DNA of 64,000 nt. It comes from Nitrospirota bacterium. Lineage in GTDB: Bacteria > Nitrospirota > UBA9217. The translations under genes and the position numbers were made by a program. The DNA lies in contig CAVVUN010000015.1 of NCBI GenBank assembly GCA_963751455.1, forward strand, positions 1,280,001 to 1,344,000, read 5' to 3'. The notes under the pieces are model-generated. The model saw nothing but the letters and a program-made list of their open reading frames with translations, searched no databases and was not told the origin of the DNA. The stretch's first letter is position 1. Each line of letters starts with the position of its first letter. This document shows, one piece after another, positions 8,880 through 45,681 of the stretch.

Positions 8880-9055
8880 CCTAGAAAAAAGCATTTGGGA
8901 CGCAGAAAAATCGGATAAGCGCAGATAAGGTCGGATAAAAAAACGTTCTTGTATCGTAAAAGCAGTCACCCTGCGGATGAATTTTTTTCTCTAAAAATTC
9001 TTTTGTTTGATCTGCGGTTATCTGCGTTCATCTGCGTCCAACTGCCGTTTTCAGG
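8880..9055. repeat. About 176-bp MITE-like palindromic element, copy 1 (copy 2 at 26335-26510)
   Basis: Near-identical second copy; ends CCTAGAAAAAAGCATTTGGGACGCAG / CTGCGTCCAACTGCCGTTTTCAGG are imperfect inverted repeats. Confidence 0.85.
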
Positions 9056-9153
9056 ATAAAGAGGCACAAGTAAGACACAGAATTGGGGGGACGAGCTGAG
9101 AAGATGCTGTTAAAATAGGGATAAACTGCATGACTTCTAACTTCTGCTACCGG

Positions 9154-11416: not shown

Positions 11417-11572
11417 GTGCCGATGCAGCTTCCGAAAGAAATCTCCGAACTGATCGAACGCTTTGACCGGAACATCGAAGACTACAAGTCCGGAAAGTAC
11501 AATGAGATGCGGCTCCGGCAGGAATTTCTCAATCCGTTCTTCGAAACGCTCGGTTGGGACATGAACAACCGG
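11417..11572 (+). pseudogene. N-terminal remnant of a type IIG/HsdR_N-like restriction-modification protein, cut by a transposon
   Basis: LIERFDRNIEDYKSGKYNEMRLRQEFLNPFFETLGWD is a typical REase-MTase fusion start; stops at the TIR at 11573. Confidence 0.75.
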
Positions 11573-11598
11573 GAACCTTTAGGGTCAAGTCTTTTTCG

Positions 11599-11627
11599 TT
11601 GCATTTCATTCTGATTTCTGCTACAGT
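11599..11627 (+). promoter_or_regulatory. Putative sigma70 promoter for a leaderless transposase mRNA
   Basis: TTGCAT-17bp-TACAGT, 6 nt before the ATG; no SD; the -35 lies inside the TIR. Confidence 0.55.
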
Positions 11628-11633
11628 CGCCCC

Positions 11634-12503
11634 ATGGCCCGACCTCTAAGAATAGAATATGCCGGTGCGGTCTATCACGTAACATCCCGTGGCAACGAGA
11701 AAAAGCCCGTATTCAAAAACGACCAGGACCGCGAAAACTTTCTGAACACGGTCCAGCACGTCAACAAGCGGTACAATTGGATCTGTCATGCGTATTGCCT
11801 CATGACAAATCATTACCACCTTCTTATCGAGACCCCGGAAGGCAATCTTTCTCTCGGTATGCGCCAATTGAACGGCGTCTATACGCAACTTTTCAACAAG
11901 TATCACGGCAGGTCCGGGCATTTATTCCAGGGCCGGTATAAGGCTATCTTGATCCAGAAAGACAGTCATCTCCTTGAGGTCTGCCGATATGTGGTTCTAA
12001 ATCCGGTAAGAGCAAGGATTGTCGAAGCGCCGGAAGACTGGAAGTGGTCCAGTTACCTTGCGACGGCGGGTAAGGCAGAACCTCATCCCTGCCTCACAAA
12101 GGACTGGGTGCTCGGTCAATTCAGCAGAAAACGAGATAAGGCGGAAAAAGAGTATCGCCAGTTCGTTCAGTGGGGTATCGGAAAGAAGACGATCTGGACG
12201 GAAGTGCGAGGCCAAGCGCTTTTAGGTGAGGACGATTTTGTAGATAAACTTACGGATTATCTCAAAAAGCACAAGGACATTCCCGAAATTCCCCGGAGTC
12301 AGCGATATTCGACTCGACCGTCGCTTGCCGTTTTGCTGCCCGACTCAGTCATGAACAATCATCGCAAACTGATGAAAAAGGTGTCTGAGGCCGTGGAAAA
12401 ATACGGTTATCATCAGAGTGAACTAGCCCGTCATGTGGCTGTCCACTACTCGACGATCAGCCGCTGGCTTCGTGAATACGAAAATGCAACGAAAAAGACT
12501 TGA
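11634..12503 (+). CDS. Y1/HUH transposase (RAYT-like) with C-terminal HTH
   Basis: YHVTSRGN, AYCLMTNHYHLL (HUH), LFQGRYK, YVVLNPVRA, WSSY; HTH QSELARHVAVHYSTISR. Confidence 0.93.
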   Translation: MARPLRIEYAGAVYHVTSRGNEKKPVFKNDQDRENFLNTVQHVNKRYNWICHAYCLMTNHYHLLIETPEGNLSLGMRQLNGVYTQLFNKYHGRSGHLFQGRYKAILIQKDSHLLEVCRYVVLNPVRARIVEAPEDWKWSSYLATAGKAEPHPCLTKDWVLGQFSRKRDKAEKEYRQFVQWGIGKKTIWTEVRGQALLGEDDFVDKLTDYLKKHKDIPEIPRSQRYSTRPSLAVLLPDSVMNNHRKLMKKVSEAVEKYGYHQSELARHVAVHYSTISRWLREYENATKKT

Positions 12504-12552
12504 CCCTAAAGGTTCTCTTGACCCTAAAGGTTCTCTAAAGGTTCTAAAGGTT
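12499..12552 (+). repeat. Stuttered element-end repeats
   Basis: CTTGACCCTAAAGGTTCT x2, then CTAAAGGTT x2. Confidence 0.9.
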
Positions 12553-12656
12553 TTCACAACGAGCGATTGCCGACCACCTGGGTGTGCACTTCACGTACGT
12601 GAGTAGAATTTTACGGAATCGAAGGGAAAGGTAAACAGTATAGACCTGTATAACCC
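12553..12656 (+). pseudogene. 3' remnant of a type 2 RAYT-like element
   Basis: Encodes QRAIADHLGVHFTYVSRIL...R*, followed by AACAGTATAGACCTG, matching the type 2 right end. Confidence 0.8.
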
Positions 12657-13182
12657 TGTGAAGTTCCAAGACCATCGGCGGGGGACCGCACACGGATTTC
12701 GCCGAACACCCGTCACCCATTGCGCAGCCCCCCACTCCTGGTCTATTTACTATAACAAGGATTTCCAATTCATGAATAAAGTGTTTATGAGCTGTGCATT
12801 TGCAATGCGAGCCGCGGGAGCCATGCGACGGTCTTGCCTTTTCTCAAGAGCATTGCCGGCTGCATTCCTGTTGTCGCACGTCCGAGCACGCTGAAATTCT
12901 CCGGCCCCCAATTATATCTGGGAATGTAGAACGGATTTTCCGTATCGGCTTGCAGACCGGAAAGACCATTGGCGAGCAATGAATCGGTGTTGACTTCGAA
13001 TTTCCAGATGGGATAGGATGTTGCGGTACTCGTCGGCAGAGTACTGAGGTTTAACAGTGCCTGGAGCGCCCTAAAATCATAATCCTGATTCCCTTGGACG
13101 GCTGAGGGTCAAATCTCATTTGTCAACAATGAGAGCCGGCCGATCAGCCCTGAGTTAGAGGCTTTTGGGGTCGTTTTTTTAC

Positions 13183-13297
13183 AGGCTGTTGCCTGTGCTT
13201 CGACAGGTTCAGCGTGAACGGAAAAAGATAACGATTTCAAAGGTAATGCCGTTCGCCCTGAGTTTGTCGAAGGGTGAACGGGGTTTCGGCAACAGCC
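13183..13297. repeat. Nested palindromic repeat
   Basis: Outer GGCTGTTGCC/GGCAACAGCC; inner CTTCGACAGGTTCAGCGTGAACGG / CCGTTCGCCCTGAGTTTGTCGAAG. Confidence 0.75.
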
Positions 13298-13448
13298 CTT
13301 GACAGTTCTAACGGAAAGATATTTATATCGGTCCTTTTTTTGGGCCCGCCGGGTCCTCGTTCTGCAACGCCCTTGTCGTAATGCAGTTGACGTGCCTGCA
13401 TAAAATGTGTAAAATATGATTATCATATAATACGCAGAGGAGGGAACA

Positions 13449-13730
13449 ATGACGAAAACGATAACCGCAACCGAGGCTGTTCGGAAGTTTTCCGAGATAC
13501 TCAATTCCATAAAATACACGGGGAATGACTATACGATCATGCGGGGAGGCAAGCCGGTTGCGACGATCCGTCCGGCGGAAACCCACGCAAAGGAATTGAC
13601 CCTGGGCGATCTGCCGGGATTGGTGCGATCGCTTCCCGCGCTCGGCGATGAAGCGGAACGATTCAAAAAAGACATCAGGGAAGCCCGTAAGCATCAGCCC
13701 CATTTGCCGGAGAAAGACAAATGGGCGTAA
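13449..13730 (+). CDS. Phd/YefM-family antitoxin
   Basis: ITATEAVRKFSEILNSI...IMRGGKPVATI; overlaps the toxin. Confidence 0.88.
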   Translation: MTKTITATEAVRKFSEILNSIKYTGNDYTIMRGGKPVATIRPAETHAKELTLGDLPGLVRSLPALGDEAERFKKDIREARKHQPHLPEKDKWA

Positions 13731-14128
13731 TATTCGACACGAGCGTCCTGATCTCCCTTGAGCGCGGTTCGCACGGACTTGAGAGGCTCGCCTCAGGCAG
13801 GGAAAACGAGGCCTTCGGTATCAGCGTTGTCGCTGTTTCCGAGCTCTTGCATGGCGTTCATCGTGCGGACTCAGAGAAAAGGCGCCTCACGAGGGGAGCG
13901 TTCGTCGAAAAGATTATACAGACCTTCCCGCTCTATTCGTTTGACTTGAACGCAGCGAGAATCTATGCAAAACTTTGGGCCAATCTCGCAAAAAAGGGAG
14001 TGACCATAGGCGCTCACGACCTTATGATCGCTTCAACGGCAATTGCCCTCGGTTTCTCCGTGGTTACTACTGATGTGCGCGACTATGGCAAGGTTAAGGA
14101 AGTGACTGTCGAAAAGTTCCTCGTATGA
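13721..14128 (+). CDS. vapC: VapC/PIN-domain toxin
   Basis: IFDTSVLI, SELLHG, HDLMIASTA, VVTTD. Confidence 0.9.
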   Translation: MGVIFDTSVLISLERGSHGLERLASGRENEAFGISVVAVSELLHGVHRADSEKRRLTRGAFVEKIIQTFPLYSFDLNAARIYAKLWANLAKKGVTIGAHDLMIASTAIALGFSVVTTDVRDYGKVKEVTVEKFLV

Positions 14129-14264
14129 TTAGCCTCGGTCGTTCTCAGAGGAGAACTTTCGGGGCCAGGTTTTTAAATATCAGTTGGTAGATTTGAAACC
14201 CGCCCCGTTTTTTGACCGGACCCCCACCCGTCCTCGGATATCTCCTGATCTGAAAGGAAGCCCC

Positions 14265-14360
14265 ATGAAGAGGACCCAATTATATATAGAAGATGATGTT
14301 CTTAAAGTGCTCCGGCGAGTAAGCAAGGAAAAGGCGGTTTCAATATCCGCTCTGAAATAG
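14265..14360 (+). pseudogene. Truncated CopG/RHH antitoxin
   Basis: Manual translation MKRTQLYIEDDVLKVLRRVSKEKAVSISALK*; AAGGAAG RBS. Confidence 0.65.
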
Positions 14361-14388
14361 CGACAATATCTTTGCTTTTACCATTCGT

Positions 14389-14464
14389 CCAAAGTTTCTT
14401 TTTCATAATAAAGCCCGACGCCCTATCCAGCCCGCCCCTTCGCTGTTTTTGATTGAAACTTAAT
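14389..14464 (+). repeat. 76-bp direct repeat, copy 1
   Basis: Identical to 17573-17648. Confidence 0.9.
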
Positions 14465-14467
14465 TTG

Positions 14468-15415
14468 AACTTCTTAGGGTCAGGTCCATACTGTTGGACT
14501 TTTGTTTAAACTTCTGTTAAACTCCCCTTTATGGCTCGTCCATTACGCATAGAATACTCCGGTGCAGTTTATCACATCACCAACCGGGGCAACGATAAAA
14601 AAGCCGTATTCAAAGATGACCAGGACCGAGAGATATTTCTCAAAATCCTTGCCTTCGTCAACAAACGCTACCACTGGCTTTGTCACGCCTACTGTCTCAT
14701 GGACAATCATTACCACCTCATGATAGAAACGCCGGATGGAAACCTTTCCCTCGGCATGAGGCAGCTAAACGGTGTTTATACTCAGGCGCGGAACAAACGC
14801 CACAACAAGACCGGGCACCTTTTCCAGGGCAGGTACAAGGCCATCCTTATTCAAAAGGACACTCATCTTCTTGAAGTCTGCCGCTATGTGGTCCTTAATC
14901 CGGTCCGCGCTGGGATGGTCGAAAAGCCCGAAGACTGGAAATGGTCCAGCTACCGGGCCACAGGTGGGAAGGAAACAGCTCATCCCTGTCTCACAACGGA
15001 CTGGATACTAGGACAGTTCAGCCGAACGAGGGCCAAGGCAGAGAAAGAATATCGCCAATTTGTGAAATGGGGGATCGGCAAGGAAACCATCTGGAAGGAG
15101 GTCAAGGGCCAAGCCCTTCTCGGCGAAGATGACTTTGTTGACAGCCTTGCCGATCATCTCGGAAGGCATAAAGATATTCCCGAGATCCCAAAGAGCCAGC
15201 GCTACGCCAACAGGCCGGCACTTGAAAAAATATTCACTCAGAGTATACTGGACAACAAACTTACGCGGGACAGAAAAATTGCCGAGGCTGTCGAGAAGTA
15301 CGGATACACTCAGCGTTCAATTGCTGATCACCTCAGCGTGCACTCCACATACGTGAGCAGAATTCTGTGCGGACACTACAAAAGGTAAACAGTATGGACC
15401 TGACCCTAAGAAGTT
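14468..15415 (+). mobile_element. TIR-bounded Y1/HUH (RAYT-like) element, type 2 copy a
   Basis: Perfect 28-bp IR AACTTCTTAGGGTCAGGTCCATACTGTT at 14468-14495 and 15388-15415. Confidence 0.9.
14531..15388 (+). CDS. Y1/HUH transposase (RAYT-like), type 2
   Basis: Same motifs as 11634-12503 (MDNHYHL, LNPVRAG) with a diverged C-terminal HTH; TGGACT-17-TAAACT 7 nt upstream of the ATG. Confidence 0.93.
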   Translation: MARPLRIEYSGAVYHITNRGNDKKAVFKDDQDREIFLKILAFVNKRYHWLCHAYCLMDNHYHLMIETPDGNLSLGMRQLNGVYTQARNKRHNKTGHLFQGRYKAILIQKDTHLLEVCRYVVLNPVRAGMVEKPEDWKWSSYRATGGKETAHPCLTTDWILGQFSRTRAKAEKEYRQFVKWGIGKETIWKEVKGQALLGEDDFVDSLADHLGRHKDIPEIPKSQRYANRPALEKIFTQSILDNKLTRDRKIAEAVEKYGYTQRSIADHLSVHSTYVSRILCGHYKR

Positions 15416-15430
15416 TTCTGAGAAGTTTTG

Positions 15431-17455: not shown

Positions 17456-17572
17456 CAGGTTCGTCATCAGATCGACATTGTATTTGAAATAAACCTTCGC
17501 TTCGATACGAATGTCAGTACGCTTGTCGTGGACCGCAAATCGTGGGAAAGCCGCCTTTTTTCAGTGCTTCCG

Positions 17573-17648
17573 CCAAAGTTTCTTTTTCATAATAAAGCCC
17601 GACGCCCTATCCAGCCCGCCCCTTCGCTGTTTTTGATTGAAACTTAAT
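17573..17648 (+). repeat. 76-bp direct repeat, copy 2
   Basis: Identical to 14389-14464. Confidence 0.9.
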
Positions 17649-18513: not shown

Positions 18514-18583
18514 ATGACGGGCCAAAGCGAATTGACCGCAACGAGCCTAGCGGTCGTCCATCGGTTTCCAGGAGGATACTTTA
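18514..18583 (+). pseudogene. Original 5' end of the NUDIX gene, separated by IS1380
   Basis: MTGQSELTATSLAVVHRFPGGYF joins in frame to TELFDVLD at 20105 after removing the IS and one TTTA. Confidence 0.75.
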
Positions 18584-20101
18584 CCTTAACGTTGCATAAA
18601 AAATCGCTATGCGGCCCGTTGCAATCGGTCGAGATAATGCAACAACCCCTTTTTGACTCGTGGATTGGCGTTCATTGTCAGAGTTAGCTTGCCGCCGGGC
18701 TGTGTCAGGCGGCCGGCACGCTGTATAAGTGTTCTTCGCAGGGTATTGGGCTCCGTGAACTCCCAAAGAGCGGCCCGTTTTTCGGTGGTGCCCCGGTCGG
18801 GTTCATGCGCGACCATGTGAAGTTCCTTCAGGAGATTGTGCGAGATGATCGCCGACATCATGTATAGCTGATTTCCGTGCAATCTTCTCACAGCCACGTA
18901 ATCCATATTGCACTGGGACTTTAGCTCTCCAAGGATGTTTTCCTGAGAACCGCGGCCCTGATGGAAGTTCAGGACTTTCTTCACCGTCGTTGTTTTGTTT
19001 GTAACGATCACCTTGAAGTCAAACCCGTATTCGTGCGGCGTGAACATATCAAGCTGCACCGGCTCTTTTGACTGCTTTTTGGCTTTTTGACGAATAAAAA
19101 GAAAGCGGAACCGGCTGTCCCAGCTTTTCGGCTTCCAGGGTGTGTCGAGATAGGAAACAACGGAATCGTAACGCCTCCAGCGTTTTTTGGCTTCGATCAT
19201 GTGTTTGAGTTCGGAGAACCGCTCAAAGGGGACCGAGATGGTGAACTCAATTCCGTCGCGCTCCAGCGCGCCGACGATTTCATCGCTGAAGAAAGCGCTG
19301 TCCATGCGCACTTCGATGACGATATCCGAACAGGTTGCACGCACCTGTTCGATGCACGCAAGGATGAACGCCCGGGCGCCGTTGGAATCATGTACGTTAC
19401 CCGAACGGGGCAGGACGTCAAGGACCATGCCCAACTGAGCGATCATGCAGAAAAGCGGATAATAGCTTCTCTGCCCTTTTTTCTTTTTGTTGAAGCCTAC
19501 GGCGGCACCCTCAGCCCATCGGGAGGTCGAGAGCACAGAGCCGTCGAAATCAAGCGTCACGCGACGAAGCTTCAAACCCTGTATGCGGGAGAGCGACATT
19601 TCCCGGCAGAACCGACGAAGATTCAAAATGTCCTTTGCGTCGACCGTCATCAATGCCCGGCTGATCGTGGAAACGTCCGGCATTTTTCGGAGGCCCAGAA
19701 GACGAAGCGCCATAAGGTCGTCCTGATAGTATTCGATGTCGCGGAGTTTCCGATAACCCAGCATCAGATGCACGATCAGCACGAGCGTAATGACGTGATT
19801 GCCGAAGATGGCGCTCGACGGTAGATGATCAAAGCAGCTTTTCAAGCGGGCTTTCAGATTCAGCTTCGTGAAGAATGCCTGAATGATAGCAAGGCCCGCG
19901 TAGGAAGTGAGCTGTTGATCCTCGAACTTCAGTTCCGGTATTTTGTGAACGCGGCTTAGAACCTGTGCTTTACTGGACTTCACTTTCAGTGGCCTCCTGC
20001 TTGAGTGAAATAATGATATCGCAGGAGCACTATATCCAATAATGAAGCCTGTTTCCAGAGGTTTCTGCATATTTTCAAGAAATGTTTATGCAACTACAAG
20101 G
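18584..20101 (-). mobile_element. IS1380-family insertion sequence
   Basis: IRs CCTTAACGTTGCATAAA / TTTATGCAACTACAAGG; TTTA duplication at 18580-18583 and 20102-20105. Confidence 0.88.
18607..19983 (-). CDS. IS1380-family DDE transposase
   Basis: LTSYAGL, TLDFDGSV, SYYPL, VRMDSAF, RGSQEN..GELK; likely GTG start with GGAGG RBS. Confidence 0.9.
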   Translation of the reverse strand: MKSSKAQVLSRVHKIPELKFEDQQLTSYAGLAIIQAFFTKLNLKARLKSCFDHLPSSAIFGNHVITLVLIVHLMLGYRKLRDIEYYQDDLMALRLLGLRKMPDVSTISRALMTVDAKDILNLRRFCREMSLSRIQGLKLRRVTLDFDGSVLSTSRWAEGAAVGFNKKKKGQRSYYPLFCMIAQLGMVLDVLPRSGNVHDSNGARAFILACIEQVRATCSDIVIEVRMDSAFFSDEIVGALERDGIEFTISVPFERFSELKHMIEAKKRWRRYDSVVSYLDTPWKPKSWDSRFRFLFIRQKAKKQSKEPVQLDMFTPHEYGFDFKVIVTNKTTTVKKVLNFHQGRGSQENILGELKSQCNMDYVAVRRLHGNQLYMMSAIISHNLLKELHMVAHEPDRGTTEKRAALWEFTEPNTLRRTLIQRAGRLTQPGGKLTLTMNANPRVKKGLLHYLDRLQRAA

Positions 20102-20743
20102 TTTACGGAGCTGTTCGATGTATTAGATTGCCGGGGCGAGATGACCGGCGAAACTGTCGCGCGAGACGAGGCGCACCGGACAGGTGTGTGGCACGGAGCG
20201 TTTCATTGCCTCATCACGTACGAACGCGAGGGCAGGGGATATGCTCTTTTTCAGAGGCGTTCTTTGTCAAAAAAGATAGCGCCGGGCCGGTATGATGTCA
20301 CCGCCGGCGGTCATTATTCGGCAGGGGAGAGCGCAACCGACGCAGGCCCTCGCGAGCTCAGGGAGGAAATCGGCCTCGATGTGAAGTTTTCTGATCTTTT
20401 TCCGATCGGCCGCCGTGTGTTCGTGTACTGTTTCACACCCGGGGTGAAGGAATGCGAATTCCAGGATGTGTTCCTTCTGCCGCTGTCCGCTCAGCCGACC
20501 GGAATTACGTTGGAGAAAGAAGAGGTTGACGGAGTAATTGAAATGGAAGTGGATGCAGGCATCAGGCTCTTCGCACGCGAGGTTCCGTATGCCGAATGCC
20601 GCTTGTCGAAAGACGGTGAAAAAAACGACCTGGTCAGGGTTTCCGCAAACGATTTTGTAACCTGTCTCGACAATTACTACTTGAAACTGCTCCTGCTCGC
20701 AAAGCGGTATTTCAACGGTGAACGAAGGATTCTCTTTATATAG
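20042..20743 (+). CDS. NUDIX hydrolase (IDI-like), N-terminus displaced by the IS
   Basis: GHYSAGE..RELREEIG Nudix box; AHRTGVWH. Confidence 0.82.
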   Translation: MKPVSRGFCIFSRNVYATTRFTELFDVLDCRGEMTGETVARDEAHRTGVWHGAFHCLITYEREGRGYALFQRRSLSKKIAPGRYDVTAGGHYSAGESATDAGPRELREEIGLDVKFSDLFPIGRRVFVYCFTPGVKECEFQDVFLLPLSAQPTGITLEKEEVDGVIEMEVDAGIRLFAREVPYAECRLSKDGEKNDLVRVSANDFVTCLDNYYLKLLLLAKRYFNGERRILFI

Positions 20744-26334: not shown

Positions 26335-26510
26335 CCTAAAAAAAGCATTTGGGACGCAGAAAAATCGGATAAACGCAGATAAGGTCGGATAAAAAAAACG
26401 TTCTTGTATCGTAAAAGCAGTCACCCTGCGGGTGAATTTTTTTCTCTAAAAATCCTTTTGTTTGATCTGCGGTTATCTGCGTTCATCTGCGTCCAACTGC
26501 CGTTTTCAGG
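26335..26510. repeat. About 176-bp MITE-like element, copy 2
   Basis: Near-identical to 8880-9055. Confidence 0.85.
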
Positions 26511-26736
26511 TTAATGAGGCTTCGCCTCAGACCAATGAACAAACCAACACCCTTGAGGATGTTTTTCTTCAGTCAGGCTATAATAATACTCTCAGACAAG
26601 GGGAATATTACCTTTACATCATTTCCTATAGTCTTTCTTTATAAACATATCGCCAGACAGGTCGAGTTCCAGGTCTTCAACTTTTCAGCATGTGCGCCAG
26701 CCGGCCCACGTTGTATGGGGGTTAAGGAGGAAGACA

Positions 26737-42958: not shown

Positions 42959-43413
42959 AGGGTCAGGTCCATACTCTTTACCTTTTGTAGTGTCCGCACA
43001 GAATTCTGCTCACGTATGTGGAGTGCACGCCGAGGTGATCAGCAATTGAACGCTGAGTGTATCCGTACTTCTCGACAGCCTCGGCAATTTTTCTGTCCCG
43101 CTTAGGTTTGTTGTCCAGTATACTCTGAGTGAATATTTTTTCAAGTGTTGGTCTGTTGGCGTAACGCTGGCTCTTTGGGATCTCGGGAATATCTTTATGC
43201 CTTCTGAGATGATCGGCCAGGCTGTCAACAAAATCATCTTCGCCGAGAAGGGCCTGGCCCTTAACCTCATTCCAGATGGTTTCCTTGCCGATCCCCCATT
43301 TCACAAATTGGCGATATTCTTTCTCTGCCTTGCCTCTTGTTCGGCTGAATTGTCCGAGTACCCAGTCTGTGGTAAGACAAGGGTGGGCCGGCTCTTTCCC
43401 CCCTGTGGCCCGG
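42959..43413 (-). pseudogene. 3' half of type 2 RAYT-like element, copy b
   Basis: Near-identical to the 3' half of 14531-15388; right end AGGGTCAGGTCCATAC. Confidence 0.9.
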
Positions 43414-44355
43414 GAACATTAGGGTCAAGTCTTTTTCGTTGCATTTTCGTATTCACGAAGCCAGCGGCTGATTGTAGAATAGTGGACAGCCACATGGCGG
43501 GCTAGTTCACTCTGATGATAACCGTATTTTTCCACGGCCTCGGACACCTTTTTCATCAGTTTGCGATGATTGTTCATGACTGAGTCGGGCAGCAAAACGG
43601 CAAGCGACGGTCGAGTCGAATATCGCTGACTCCGGGGAATTTCGGGAATGTCCTTGTGTTTTTTGAGATAATCTGTAAGTTTATCTACGAAATCGTCCTC
43701 ACCTAAGAGCGCTTGGCCTCGCACTTCCGTCCAGATCGTCTTCTTCCCGATCCCCCACTGAACGAACTGGCGATACTCTTTTTCCGCCTTATCTCGTTTT
43801 CTGCTGAATTGACCAAGCACCCAATCCGTTGCGAGGCAGGGATGAGATTCAGCCTTACCCGCCGTCGCAAGGTAACTGGACCACTTCCAGTCTTCCGGCG
43901 CTTCGACCATCCTTGCTCTTACCGGATTTAGAACCACATATCGGCAGACCTCAAGGAGATGACTGTCTTTCTGGATCAGGATAGCCTTATACCGGCCCTG
44001 GAATAAATGCCCGGACCTGCCGTGATACTTGTTGAAAAGTTGCGTATACACGCTGTTCAATTGGCGCATGCCTAGGGAAAGATTGCCCTCCGGGGTCTCG
44101 ATAAGAAGGTGGTAATGATTTGTCATGAGGCAATACGCATGACAGATCCAATTGTACCGCTTGTTGACGTGCTGGACCGTGTTCAGGAAGTTTTCGCGGT
44201 CCTGGTCGTTTTTGAATACGGGCTTCTTCTCATTGCCACGAGATGTTACGTGATAGACCGCACCGGCATATTCTATTCTTAGAGGTCGGGCCATGGGGCG
44301 ACTGTAGCAGAAATCAGAATAAACTGCAACGAAAAAGACTTGACCCTAAAGATTC
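43414..44355 (-). mobile_element. TIR-bounded type 1 RAYT-like element, copy b
   Basis: Ends GAACATTAGGGTCAAGTCTTTTTCGTTGCA / TGCAACGAAAAAGACTTGACCCTAAAGATTC. Confidence 0.9.
43425..44294 (-). CDS. Y1/HUH transposase type 1, copy b
   Basis: Five amino-acid differences from 11634-12503 by eye. Confidence 0.93.
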   Translation of the reverse strand: MARPLRIEYAGAVYHVTSRGNEKKPVFKNDQDRENFLNTVQHVNKRYNWICHAYCLMTNHYHLLIETPEGNLSLGMRQLNSVYTQLFNKYHGRSGHLFQGRYKAILIQKDSHLLEVCRYVVLNPVRARMVEAPEDWKWSSYLATAGKAESHPCLATDWVLGQFSRKRDKAEKEYRQFVQWGIGKKTIWTEVRGQALLGEDDFVDKLTDYLKKHKDIPEIPRSQRYSTRPSLAVLLPDSVMNNHRKLMKKVSEAVEKYGYHQSELARHVAVHYSTISRWLREYENATKKT

Positions 44356-44727
44356 CTCTTATACCGGCCCTGGAATAAATGCCCGGACCTTCCGTGATAC
44401 TTGTTGAAAAGTTGCGTATAGACGCTGTTCAATTGGCGCATACCGAGAGAAAGATTGCCTTCCGGGGTCTCGATAAGAAGATGGTAATGGTTTGTCATGA
44501 GGCAATACGCATGACAGATCCAATTGTACCGCTTGTTGACGTGCTGGACCGTGTTCAGGAAGTTTTCGCGGTCCTGGTCGTTTTTGAATACGGGCTTTTT
44601 CTCGTTGCCACGGGATGTTACGTGATAGACCGCACCGGCATATTCTATTCTTAGAGGTCGGGCCATGGGGCGACTGTAGCAGAAATCAGAATGAAATGCA
44701 ACGAAAAAGACTTGACCCTAAAGATTC
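44356..44727 (-). pseudogene. Truncated type 1 element, copy c
   Basis: Left end plus first 103 codons, cut at FQGRYK by the left end of copy b. Confidence 0.9.
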
Positions 44728-44729
44728 TC

Positions 44730-44860
44730 CTTCTATGCGTAATGGACGAGCCATAAAGGGGAGTTTAGCAGAAGTTTAAACAAAAGTCCAACAGTATGGA
44801 CCTGACCCTAAGTAGTTCTCGTTCTAAGTAGTTCCTAAGTAGTTCTGACCCTAAGTAGTT
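44730..44860 (-). mobile_element. 5' end of type 2 copy b plus stuttered end repeats
   Basis: Encodes MARPLRIE; carries the type 2 left end; CTAAGTAGTT x4, twice preceded by CTGACC. Confidence 0.88.
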
Positions 44861-45681
44861 CTACCATGAATATATTCGAAGTCAGTCTTTTTTAGGTCTT
44901 CTCTCTTCGCGTACTTATAGTAAAATTTCAATATAGAAGGTTCATCATACAGCATTGTGACTTGACCATTTGAATTCATCAGAAATGGTTTTAGCCAAAA
45001 TGGTCTGGACGGATTTTGCTTTTTTATGAATGTATTTAGTTGCGATTGAGGGCTATGTGGAAATAATTTACAAAAAGTCATCTGCATTATAAGACGCTGA
45101 TGCTCCTTGTCATATTTCTCGTATTTGTTTTTCTCCTCAATCGTGGTGAAAAAATCGGAAATCACTTTTCTATCTTTATTGGGGTAAATATATGTGGAGT
45201 ACTCTGACTCATTTTCGACGATAAAGGATATACAGATATTATTTTCTCTATCCTCCTTGGTGCCATAATTCCATGACGAAATAAGATCGAAAAAATTCCT
45301 CGCATATTCGAGAGACGCAAAAGCGCATCCGACGACATTTAGCATGTTTGCCTCTGATTCGGCAGGAGTTGCGAAAGCCATCCCTTTCCATTCAGATGGA
45401 TCATACGTAAAATTCGGCATAGGCTGAACATATATGGATGTGTATTCAAATACAGCCCTTTCAAGGAATTGTTGAAATAGGAATAATGCAACGGCAAGTG
45501 ATAACGATATGTACCATGTAGGAATTGAAATGATGCTTGTAGCAATGCCCACTGCTGTCAATATCCGTATCGACCATTTAATTGGTCTCTCATATTGTTC
45601 GTGAACAACTAATTTGGGTATCCCTTTACGGAATCTTATATCTACAAGGCTTCTGAGAGCTACTTTCCACTTTCCTTTCAT
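44851..45681 (-). CDS. Hypothetical membrane protein (AT-rich, cassette-like)
   Basis: Two N-terminal TM helices; AGGAG RBS; stop codon falls inside the element-end stutter. Confidence 0.75.
   Translation of the reverse strand: MKGKWKVALRSLVDIRFRKGIPKLVVHEQYERPIKWSIRILTAVGIATSIISIPTWYISLSLAVALFLFQQFLERAVFEYTSIYVQPMPNFTYDPSEWKGMAFATPAESEANMLNVVGCAFASLEYARNFFDLISSWNYGTKEDRENNICISFIVENESEYSTYIYPNKDRKVISDFFTTIEEKNKYEKYDKEHQRLIMQMTFCKLFPHSPQSQLNTFIKKQNPSRPFWLKPFLMNSNGQVTMLYDEPSILKFYYKYAKREDLKKTDFEYIHGRTT

Follow-up and report, generated by a model that had tools for sequence, protein, structure and literature searches.

TIRtrons of a Nitrospirota genome: evidence suggesting movement of whole elements and reading of their terminal repeats by a helix-turn-helix

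We analyzed two transposase genes carried between positions 11573 and 15415 of a 64,000-nt stretch of a Nitrospirota bacterium genome (contig CAVVUN010000015.1, positions 1,280,001 to 1,344,000), hereafter called the window; G000 designates the genome that holds the window and Lnnn the individual relative loci. Both genes encode HUH/Y1 transposases and lie within long terminal inverted repeats (TIRs). We are practically certain that both elements are TIRtrons, members of the TIRYT/TIRtron family, which is the same as TnpA-Y1 subclass 2.1 and as group 1 of the RAYTs, the tyrosine transposases associated with repetitive extragenic palindromes (REPs). The pattern of copies indicates that TIRtrons very probably move as a unit, and covariation between protein and repeat makes it equally probable that the C-terminal helix-turn-helix (HTH) of the transposase reads the inner part of the TIR.

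Anatomy and family of the two elements

The complete type 1 TIRtron (11573..12515, plus strand), delimited by its open reading frame (ORF) and by TIR comparison, ends in a perfect 34-bp inverted repeat. Its left TIR (11573..11606, plus strand) is composed of a tip of 8-9 nt and a conserved core starting at about 11581, while its right TIR (12482..12515, minus strand) contains the TGA stop codon (12501-12503) of the gene encoding the 289-residue type 1 TIRYT (11634..12503, plus strand), as the initial annotation had noticed. The complete type 2 TIRtron (14468..15415, plus strand) ends in a perfect 28-bp repeat (14468-14495 and 15388-15415), with 35 matches out of 38 over a longer arm that includes the TAA of its gene (14531..15388, plus strand, 285 residues). 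Coordinates, repeat comparison and profile matches are thus in agreement with the earlier description of two HUH/Y1 genes in perfect 34-bp and 28-bp TIRs. The two proteins are 72% identical.

Both proteins matched PF01797 and NF047646 above the cut-off (93-95 bits for NF047646, cut-off 80), and the score with the IS200-type profile NF033573 was 15.8 bits for a cut-off of 55. They carry HYH and YxxxNP motifs (and not the YxxxQ motif of IS200/IS605), which in type 1 correspond to H60-Y61-H62 and the catalytic Y119; H60, H62 and Y119 are invariant among 39 aligned proteins. The NHYH, FQ, YVVLNP and SS motifs of subclass 2.1 are all present in both proteins, with a V where the Table 1 consensus of this subclass has an H. 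The HTH_28 cut-off was passed by type 1 only, the HTH match of type 2 being weak. An AlphaFold model (pLDDT 88) displays a HUH core followed by a C-terminal HTH with helices 261-268 and 272-287. The recognition helix of the type 1 TIRYT begins at H271-Y272 and that of type 2 reads HSTYVSRI. The best structural match was TnpA-REP (4ER8, E 8e-7), followed by the ISDra2, IS200 and IS608 TnpAs. The closest relatives of the proteins are Nitrospirota records, and in the family of the host 35 out of 64 genomes gave a match at E <= 1e-60.

The initial annotation had presented these elements as the best candidate for an under-described system. This did not hold, because the family was named TIRYT/TIRtron by Di Nocera, De Gregorio and Rocco in 2013 with TIRs sharing the motif GGGGWSAS (PMC3733652), and was tied to subclass 2.1 in 2018. 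The cores read AGGGTCAA and AGGGTCAG in our two elements, matching the motif at 6/8 positions in type 1 and 7/8 in type 2, and many relatives carry the full match GGGGTCAG. Since the cores of the elements and of their relatives fit GGGGWSAS, the family and its ends had already been described, an outcome that the initial annotation had listed as refuting its reading.

We analyzed three sets of relatives, position 0 being the first G of GGGTCA. In the first set 118 loci yielded 93 distinct near-full ORFs, 82 of them with 150-nt flanks. The second comprised 80 metagenome loci, reduced to 62 ORFs after removal of 18 partial, short-flanked, broken or duplicate loci, and the third 79 further loci yielding 55 ORFs, some of which were obtained with queries bearing R or F, so that kin of earlier rows are included. 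A search anchored on the core recovered TIR pairs for 60/82, 53/62 and 35/55 ORFs, respectively. Homologs thus do carry the same TIRs (148 of the 199 relatives with enough flank), and an earlier motif-free search gave the same core. No TIR pair was detectable in the 51 other relatives, which speaks against our interpretation. Identity between left and right ends, determined for 113 relatives, is about 30% at -9..-4, 81% at -1 and above 90% at 0..+12. Because it falls to background outside -3, the family TIR is, from these alignments, about 24 bp long, and the 8 outer bp ('GAAC..') form a tip specific to the element. Consequently the GAA(C/T) core proposed initially stands for its inner part, which is common to relatives, but not for its outer 8 bp; moreover the right end of type 2 has AAAC instead of GAAC. 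The core is not a chance occurrence, as G000 contains 79 core-motif sites for 18 expected.

Sigma-70-like promoters scoring at least 9 were found at 39/113 left ends and 12/113 right ends. Given this excess of promoter-like sequences at left ends, binding at the left TIR could have a repressive effect on the transposase gene as well. The scan did not list a promoter for type 1, whose left TIR carries at its inner end a weak -35-like hexamer (8/12, below the scan threshold) that could belong to a putative promoter.

A helix residue that tracks a repeat base

Across 62 elements, TIR distance follows the HTH more closely than the core domain (partial correlations of 0.32 and 0.28 versus 0.18 and 0.13), and HTH windows occupied the highest ranks when 272 windows were scanned with correction for core distance. 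The link could be narrowed to one position, since residue 272 predicts base +11 at both ends in 62 out of 62 elements. Tyrosine (37 elements), valine (2), alanine (1) and proline (3) go with T, leucine (9) and arginine (5) with C, phenylalanine (4) and serine (1) with A. Among 3,920 pairs, corrected mutual information singles out 272/+11 with a z of 12.7, the next pair reaching 5.5. The codon of residue 272 is about 40 nt away from the nearest TIR, so that the overlap between gene and TIR is no explanation for the covariation.

Predictions were fixed before new loci were fetched. They held for 51/51 metagenome loci (Y to T 48/48, F to A 3/3) and for 30/32 loci of the further set (Y to T 22/23, F to A 4/4, L to C 3/4, R to C 1/1), that is 81 out of 83 held-out cases, including 11 of the 12 with a residue other than tyrosine. 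The same pairing of F with A is seen in the window itself, in the 3' remnant of a third subfamily (12555..12665, plus strand, helix HFTYVSRI) that adjoins the type 1 right end and whose own right TIR has a 4-nt insertion and an A at +11. The check suggested in the initial annotation, HTH/TIR covariation, was therefore positive, the recognition helix covarying with the inner TIR. The F state requires 4 changes on the 62-row tree.

Three points weaken this conclusion. First, 70 of the 81 held-out successes represent the common Y to T state. Second, L254 and L265 are exceptions to the code; both differ at residue 273, which may contribute. Third, core-domain trees provided 3 independent pairs on well-supported branches, all concordant, for an underpowered p of 0.25. 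In all, comparison of these sequences makes a strong case for a residue-base code, not formally proven free of shared descent. A second pair that we considered, N271 with C at +6, was too weak to retain, its three cases being confined to one small group and C occurring with H in L178.

Copies, junctions and re-copied ends

Type 1 is present at seven places in G000. The ORF is intact in three of them, interrupted by an IS200-type element in one and shortened by a 95-bp deletion in another, and of the last two, one is a 370-nt stub and the other a short derivative that contains a group II intron. Identity among the four copies that were aligned is 95.8-98.0%. The flanks of the copies are unique, except where they share end re-copies or have other TIRtrons as neighbours. 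Codon differences between copies are mostly synonymous (synonymous to non-synonymous 24:5, 14:4 and 28:7), indicating that the type 1 lineage has been under selection for function. Likewise, genome G011 contains five copies of another subfamily (96.7-98.9% identical), and only in the pair L201/L204 does the similarity extend past the tips.

The near-identical copies reported 30 kb away in other contexts are real and inverted, and contexts are unrelated in both G000 and G011. A second type 1 copy (43412..44355, minus strand) has an intact ORF (98.3% identical in amino acids) and an altered right tip; it is near-full, with 96.6% identity over 937 nt. Head to tail with it lies a third type 1 copy reduced to its 5' 370 nt (44358..44727, minus strand, 98.4%). 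These two copies sit inside a type 2 copy (42959-44818) that is split into its 5' 87 nt (44731..44818, minus strand, 97.7%, with left-tip re-copies at about 44819-44862) and its 3' 455 nt (42959..43413, minus strand, 93.2%). Between these two pieces about 400 nt of type 2 sequence are missing, at the point occupied by the type 1 copies, and the left junctions carry 2-3 additional purines. Two type 2 left stubs, 44731-44818 and G000:C15:787232-787317, break at the same base 87. Each is followed by a TIR end from a subfamily other than its own, a possible hot spot.

Several type 1 or related copies host other insertions. At G000:C3:359909-361796, just inside the right TIR of an internally deleted type 1 element of roughly 215 bp, lies a group II intron (recognized by eye from its ends and motifs) whose ORF resembles a reverse transcriptase. 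Another type 1 copy is split at G000:C1:505645-506258 by an element of roughly 615 bp whose tnpA is, by eye, of the IS200 type, so that both Y1 classes are found at one locus. Decayed TIRYT genes at G000:C15:213095-213190 and 214690-214800 contain palindromic-looking insertions of about 100 nt near the FQGR motif.

No target-site duplication had been noticed initially, and this was borne out: the end of the left flank and the start of the right flank match over 0-1 nt in 10 out of 11 copies, the single 4-nt case being a truncated copy that adjoins another element. The copy at C1:555310 interrupts an integrase gene behind the codons for His-Ser-Phe, as judged from two intact homologues in G000, and the type 1 left junction in the window truncates a gene of which only a 5' stub remains (11420..11572, plus strand), the rest being absent from the right flank. 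The type 2 left flank (14384..14464, plus strand) can be compared with a twin (17568-17648) that lacks the element, which defines the type 2 left junction and reveals 2 extra bases there. One-sided junctions were resolved at the integrase gene, at the type 2 left flank and in the nested copies at 42959-44818, and at none of these three sites do the left and right flanks rejoin into one target. A fixed target motif was ruled out, since target ends differ at resolved junctions.

A different explanation is that the TIRYT is a RAYT-like gene acting on TIRs only locally, the copies resulting from repeated horizontal uptake or from recombination in genomic islands. Divergence of 2-4%, mostly synonymous, fits separate arrivals too, the copies sit amid other mobile DNA, TIRtrons are rare on plasmids, and only 6.3% of group 1 members have a near-identical copy according to Bertels et al. 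2017, although this is the top value among true RAYTs (PMC5581495). However, similarity between copies stops at the tips in two genomes, and junctions cut the integrase gene and other TIRtron genes exactly at the tip. We therefore regard purely local action as quite unlikely.

Movement as a unit nevertheless has observations against it. In G011, the similarity between L201 and L204 continues over 1.4 kb of flank. Dispersed type 1 copies all differ from one another, while the ten copies of a 1.52-kb insertion sequence (IS) in G000 are 99.8-100% identical, which weighs against recent activity. Relatives on plasmids are limited to 1 match in 72,556 plasmids at E <= 1e-40. Finally, blastn and tblastx searches of separate flanks against all loci and G000, a small set without same-species genomes, found both flanks adjacent in one other sequence for 0 of 124 elements, and inspection of flank ORFs gave no two-sided empty site either. 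The few adjacent flank matches were neighbouring TIRtron copies, and among the genomes searched there was no same-genus relative of G000. The comparison of empty sites thus provided no clean case. As for the autonomous TIR-type HUH transposon proposed initially, dispersed copies and unrelated flanks support the transposon, while its autonomy is deduced and no clean empty site accompanies it. Viral contigs gave 2 partial, distant matches only, and E. coli genomes no match to the DNA of one relative. One of the ten copies of the 1.52-kb IS, which has imperfect terminal repeats, is found in the window at 18583-20103, and another adjoins a TIRtron left end at G000:C1:186135.

The outside of TIRtron ends is marked by tandem re-copies of the end itself. 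Tandem repeats spanning the junction were detected at 44/119 ends, versus 27/4,977 outward and 8/2,880 inward flank controls, and in a held-out set at 21/104 ends versus 8/1,412 controls, for a total of 65/223 ends versus 35/6,389 controls. Re-copies start at -13..-6 in 62 of the 65 cases, although starts at much greater distances would also have been detected, and end between -3 and +33. In the window, three tandem re-copies (18, 11 and about 10 nt) follow the type 1 right end at 12516..12554, and a single re-copy of the type 2 right tip lies at 15416..15429; the initial annotation had overlooked these re-copies as well as the third-subfamily remnant at 12555-12665. Long re-copies keep the outer end and lie outside a full copy, as for an exact 902 bp in G000 and 114 bp in L209, and partial adjacent re-copies of 38-359 bp were found in 4/113 elements. 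Contigs from public sequencing runs display the same arrangement. In one contig of run X1 a 419-nt piece returns to exactly 11573 with two extra bases, and elsewhere a piece from 14730 goes back to 14467. In run X3, five contigs part from the window sequence just before 14467.

Assembly or strain-mixing artefacts might produce copies, tandem pieces and re-copies. G000 is flagged as 5.37% contaminated, and we found no sequencing run containing the window for a read check: five public runs share only 5-7% of words with it, and the four examined contain elements of other organisms, so they are unable to verify the G000 assembly. Yet the copies differ mutually and have unique flanks, the same junction pattern occurs at 65 ends in many independent assemblies as well as in public-run contigs, and in G000 a re-copy is present at 10 of 79 core-motif sites (about 18 of these 79 sites being expected by chance) versus only 1/20 ends of the 10-copy IS. 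An artefact is extremely improbable.

A more serious alternative is mobility by single-stranded 'peel-and-paste', as for IS200/IS605. The two TIRs would pair on one strand into a panhandle, followed by excision and reinsertion of a circular or linear strand, and the short re-copies would result from replication slippage. The HUH fold is indeed that of the IS608 and ISDra2 TnpAs. Left and right tips match in 9/111 elements versus 2.9 when shuffled (within-clade p 0.02 and 0.004), a weak excess of the kind that panhandle fill-in would give, and many re-copy junctions show microhomologies. Against it, resolved junctions have no fixed target tetranucleotide, targets are deleted and not cleanly interrupted, and slippage leaves unexplained both the starts at -13..-6 and the re-copies of 114-902 bp from the same place. 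We consider this route rather unlikely.

Instead, the junction pattern fits a cycle in which an end is nicked, extended and rejoined. Three observations argue against this reading. The adjacent partial copy of L062 has the opposite polarity. Slippage could account for the many re-copies that have microhomologies of 1-3 nt. The outer 21 nt of the re-copies at 12516-12554, located beyond the type 1 TIR of the window, are also present at the copy G000:C1:545582-546524; as this array is common to two copies, an outer re-copy can serve as an end, and ends can also travel from about -30.

Isolated ends are found as well. The window contains an orphan degenerate TIR-core site (13106..13130, plus strand). 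In G000, same-direction orphan TIR ends stand in rows among accessory DNA (C15:192880-193620 and 1424300-1434150), and C12:213382-213475 is a roughly 90-bp pair of TIR ends of two subfamilies, resembling a miniature inverted-repeat transposable element, with a re-copy at one end; similar two-ended pairs occur at C12:214967-215238 and 243924-244238. L215 (G044:C4:101400-104979) has four re-copies laddered at a TIRtron right end and further partial left ends upstream.

Between type 1 and type 2 lies a pair of genes for a Phd/YefM-like antitoxin and a PIN-domain protein (13449-14128) with ordinary type II toxin-antitoxin anatomy. A composite transposon around this pair (11573-15415) was ruled out, because the flanking elements are of different subfamilies and the 9.5-kb stretch is single in G000. 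Other repeats of the window are dispersed REP-like repeats of about 27-34 nt around ATCCGCAGATT (24830-61566, both orientations, sometimes doubled), a short palindromic repeat at 13239-13281 with loose ends on both sides and common to many unrelated contigs, and a direct duplicate of about 180 nt (8885-9065 and 26339-26520, 97-98% identical).

Proposed mechanism and known systems

The model that we favor, and hold to be fairly probable, is that of autonomous elements whose HTH binds the inner TIR and whose HUH domain nicks about 6-13 nt outside the core, the 5' end then being joined to a nearby free 3' end. Binding, the position and strand of the nick, autonomy and the intermediate are what we infer in this model. 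The autonomous unit would be an element of about 945 bp with one HUH/Y1 gene and inverted repeats of about 24 conserved bp. With the enzyme anchored by its HTH on the inner TIR, nicking would leave a protein-linked 5' end, HUH enzymes being known to leave a 5'-phosphotyrosine plus a 3'-OH. Joining of this 5' end to the flank just extended by host polymerase would generate a tandem re-copy of the end, from 7 to 900 nt, and joining to a 3' end elsewhere would insert the element with no duplication of the target and often at the cost of target DNA. Such insertions would often land in or beside another TIRtron. We give this nick-extend-rejoin chemistry an even chance. It has precedents in related proteins, as TnpA-REP joins a 5'-phosphotyrosine to an added 3'-OH (PMC8266576) and nicking, extension and rejoining were proposed for the tandem growth of bacterial interspersed mosaic elements (PMC3333891).

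More tentatively, at slightly less than even odds, TIRtrons could constitute a distinct autonomous HUH class, in which the HTH would read two symmetrical double-stranded ends through a residue-base code, nick outside them and join whatever 3' end is free, with re-copies, deletions and nested stacks as traces in place of target duplications. HTH-read symmetrical ends would then set them apart from IS200/IS605 and IS91. If this is true, a large 'domesticated' family is partly a transposon class with its own end-recognition and joining chemistry, the code lets coexisting subfamilies (several in G000) avoid cross-mobilisation, end specificity is changeable through a single residue, and TIRtrons bring about deletions and truncated genes in accessory regions.

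With IS200/IS605 elements such as IS608 and ISDra2, TIRtrons share the HUH/Y1 fold, the absence of target duplication and a small single-gene size. However, IS200/IS605 use YxxxQ and subterminal hairpins with guide-selected cleavage, whereas the elements described here have YxxxNP and TIRs, and the resolved target sides have no common motif. They resemble REPtrons in that TnpA-REP 4ER8 is the closest solved fold, with 5'-phosphotyrosine chemistry expected by family. REPtrons, however, are described as elements that do not move as a unit and that recognize GTAG-footed hairpins without an HTH (PMC3333891, PMC8266576). Unlike them, the TIRtrons described here have non-palindromic TIRs, an HTH and whole-element copies, and we met no GTAG-footed palindromic REPs at the gene flanks, which hold TIRs and tip re-copies.

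The closest likeness is to the TIRtrons of 2013. As in that article, a RAYT-like tyrosine transposase gene is flanked by long TIRs whose distance from the gene is fixed and some of which overlap its 3' end, and orphan TIRs lie elsewhere in the genome (PMC3733652). TIRYTs were treated there as possible makers of TIR repeat families; in its main text we saw no multi-copy whole elements, no end re-copies and no HTH-TIR link. Our literature search, thin on subscription journals, found no biochemical test of TIRtrons and no study of these elements later than 2018. In Quentin et al. 2018, subclass 2.1, with a C-terminal HTH, is the same as RAYT group 1 and probably as the TIRYTs; it is the second-largest group of Y1 HUH proteins, present in 14.9% of species (PMC6006769). 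Our elements resemble its HTH-bearing subgroup 2.1.2 in NH[YF]H, FQ, Y..LNP and SS motifs, a long protein, a C-terminal HTH_23/HTH_28-like domain and absence of REPs. They differ from the subclass as surveyed in having copies 96-98% identical and one helix residue that tracks one TIR base. The survey found no evidence of mobility and left open both movement and reading of the TIR by the HTH (PMC6006769). The evidence presented here bears on these two points, and what is new with respect to the survey is that the copies and their junctions suggest mobility of whole TIRtron elements.

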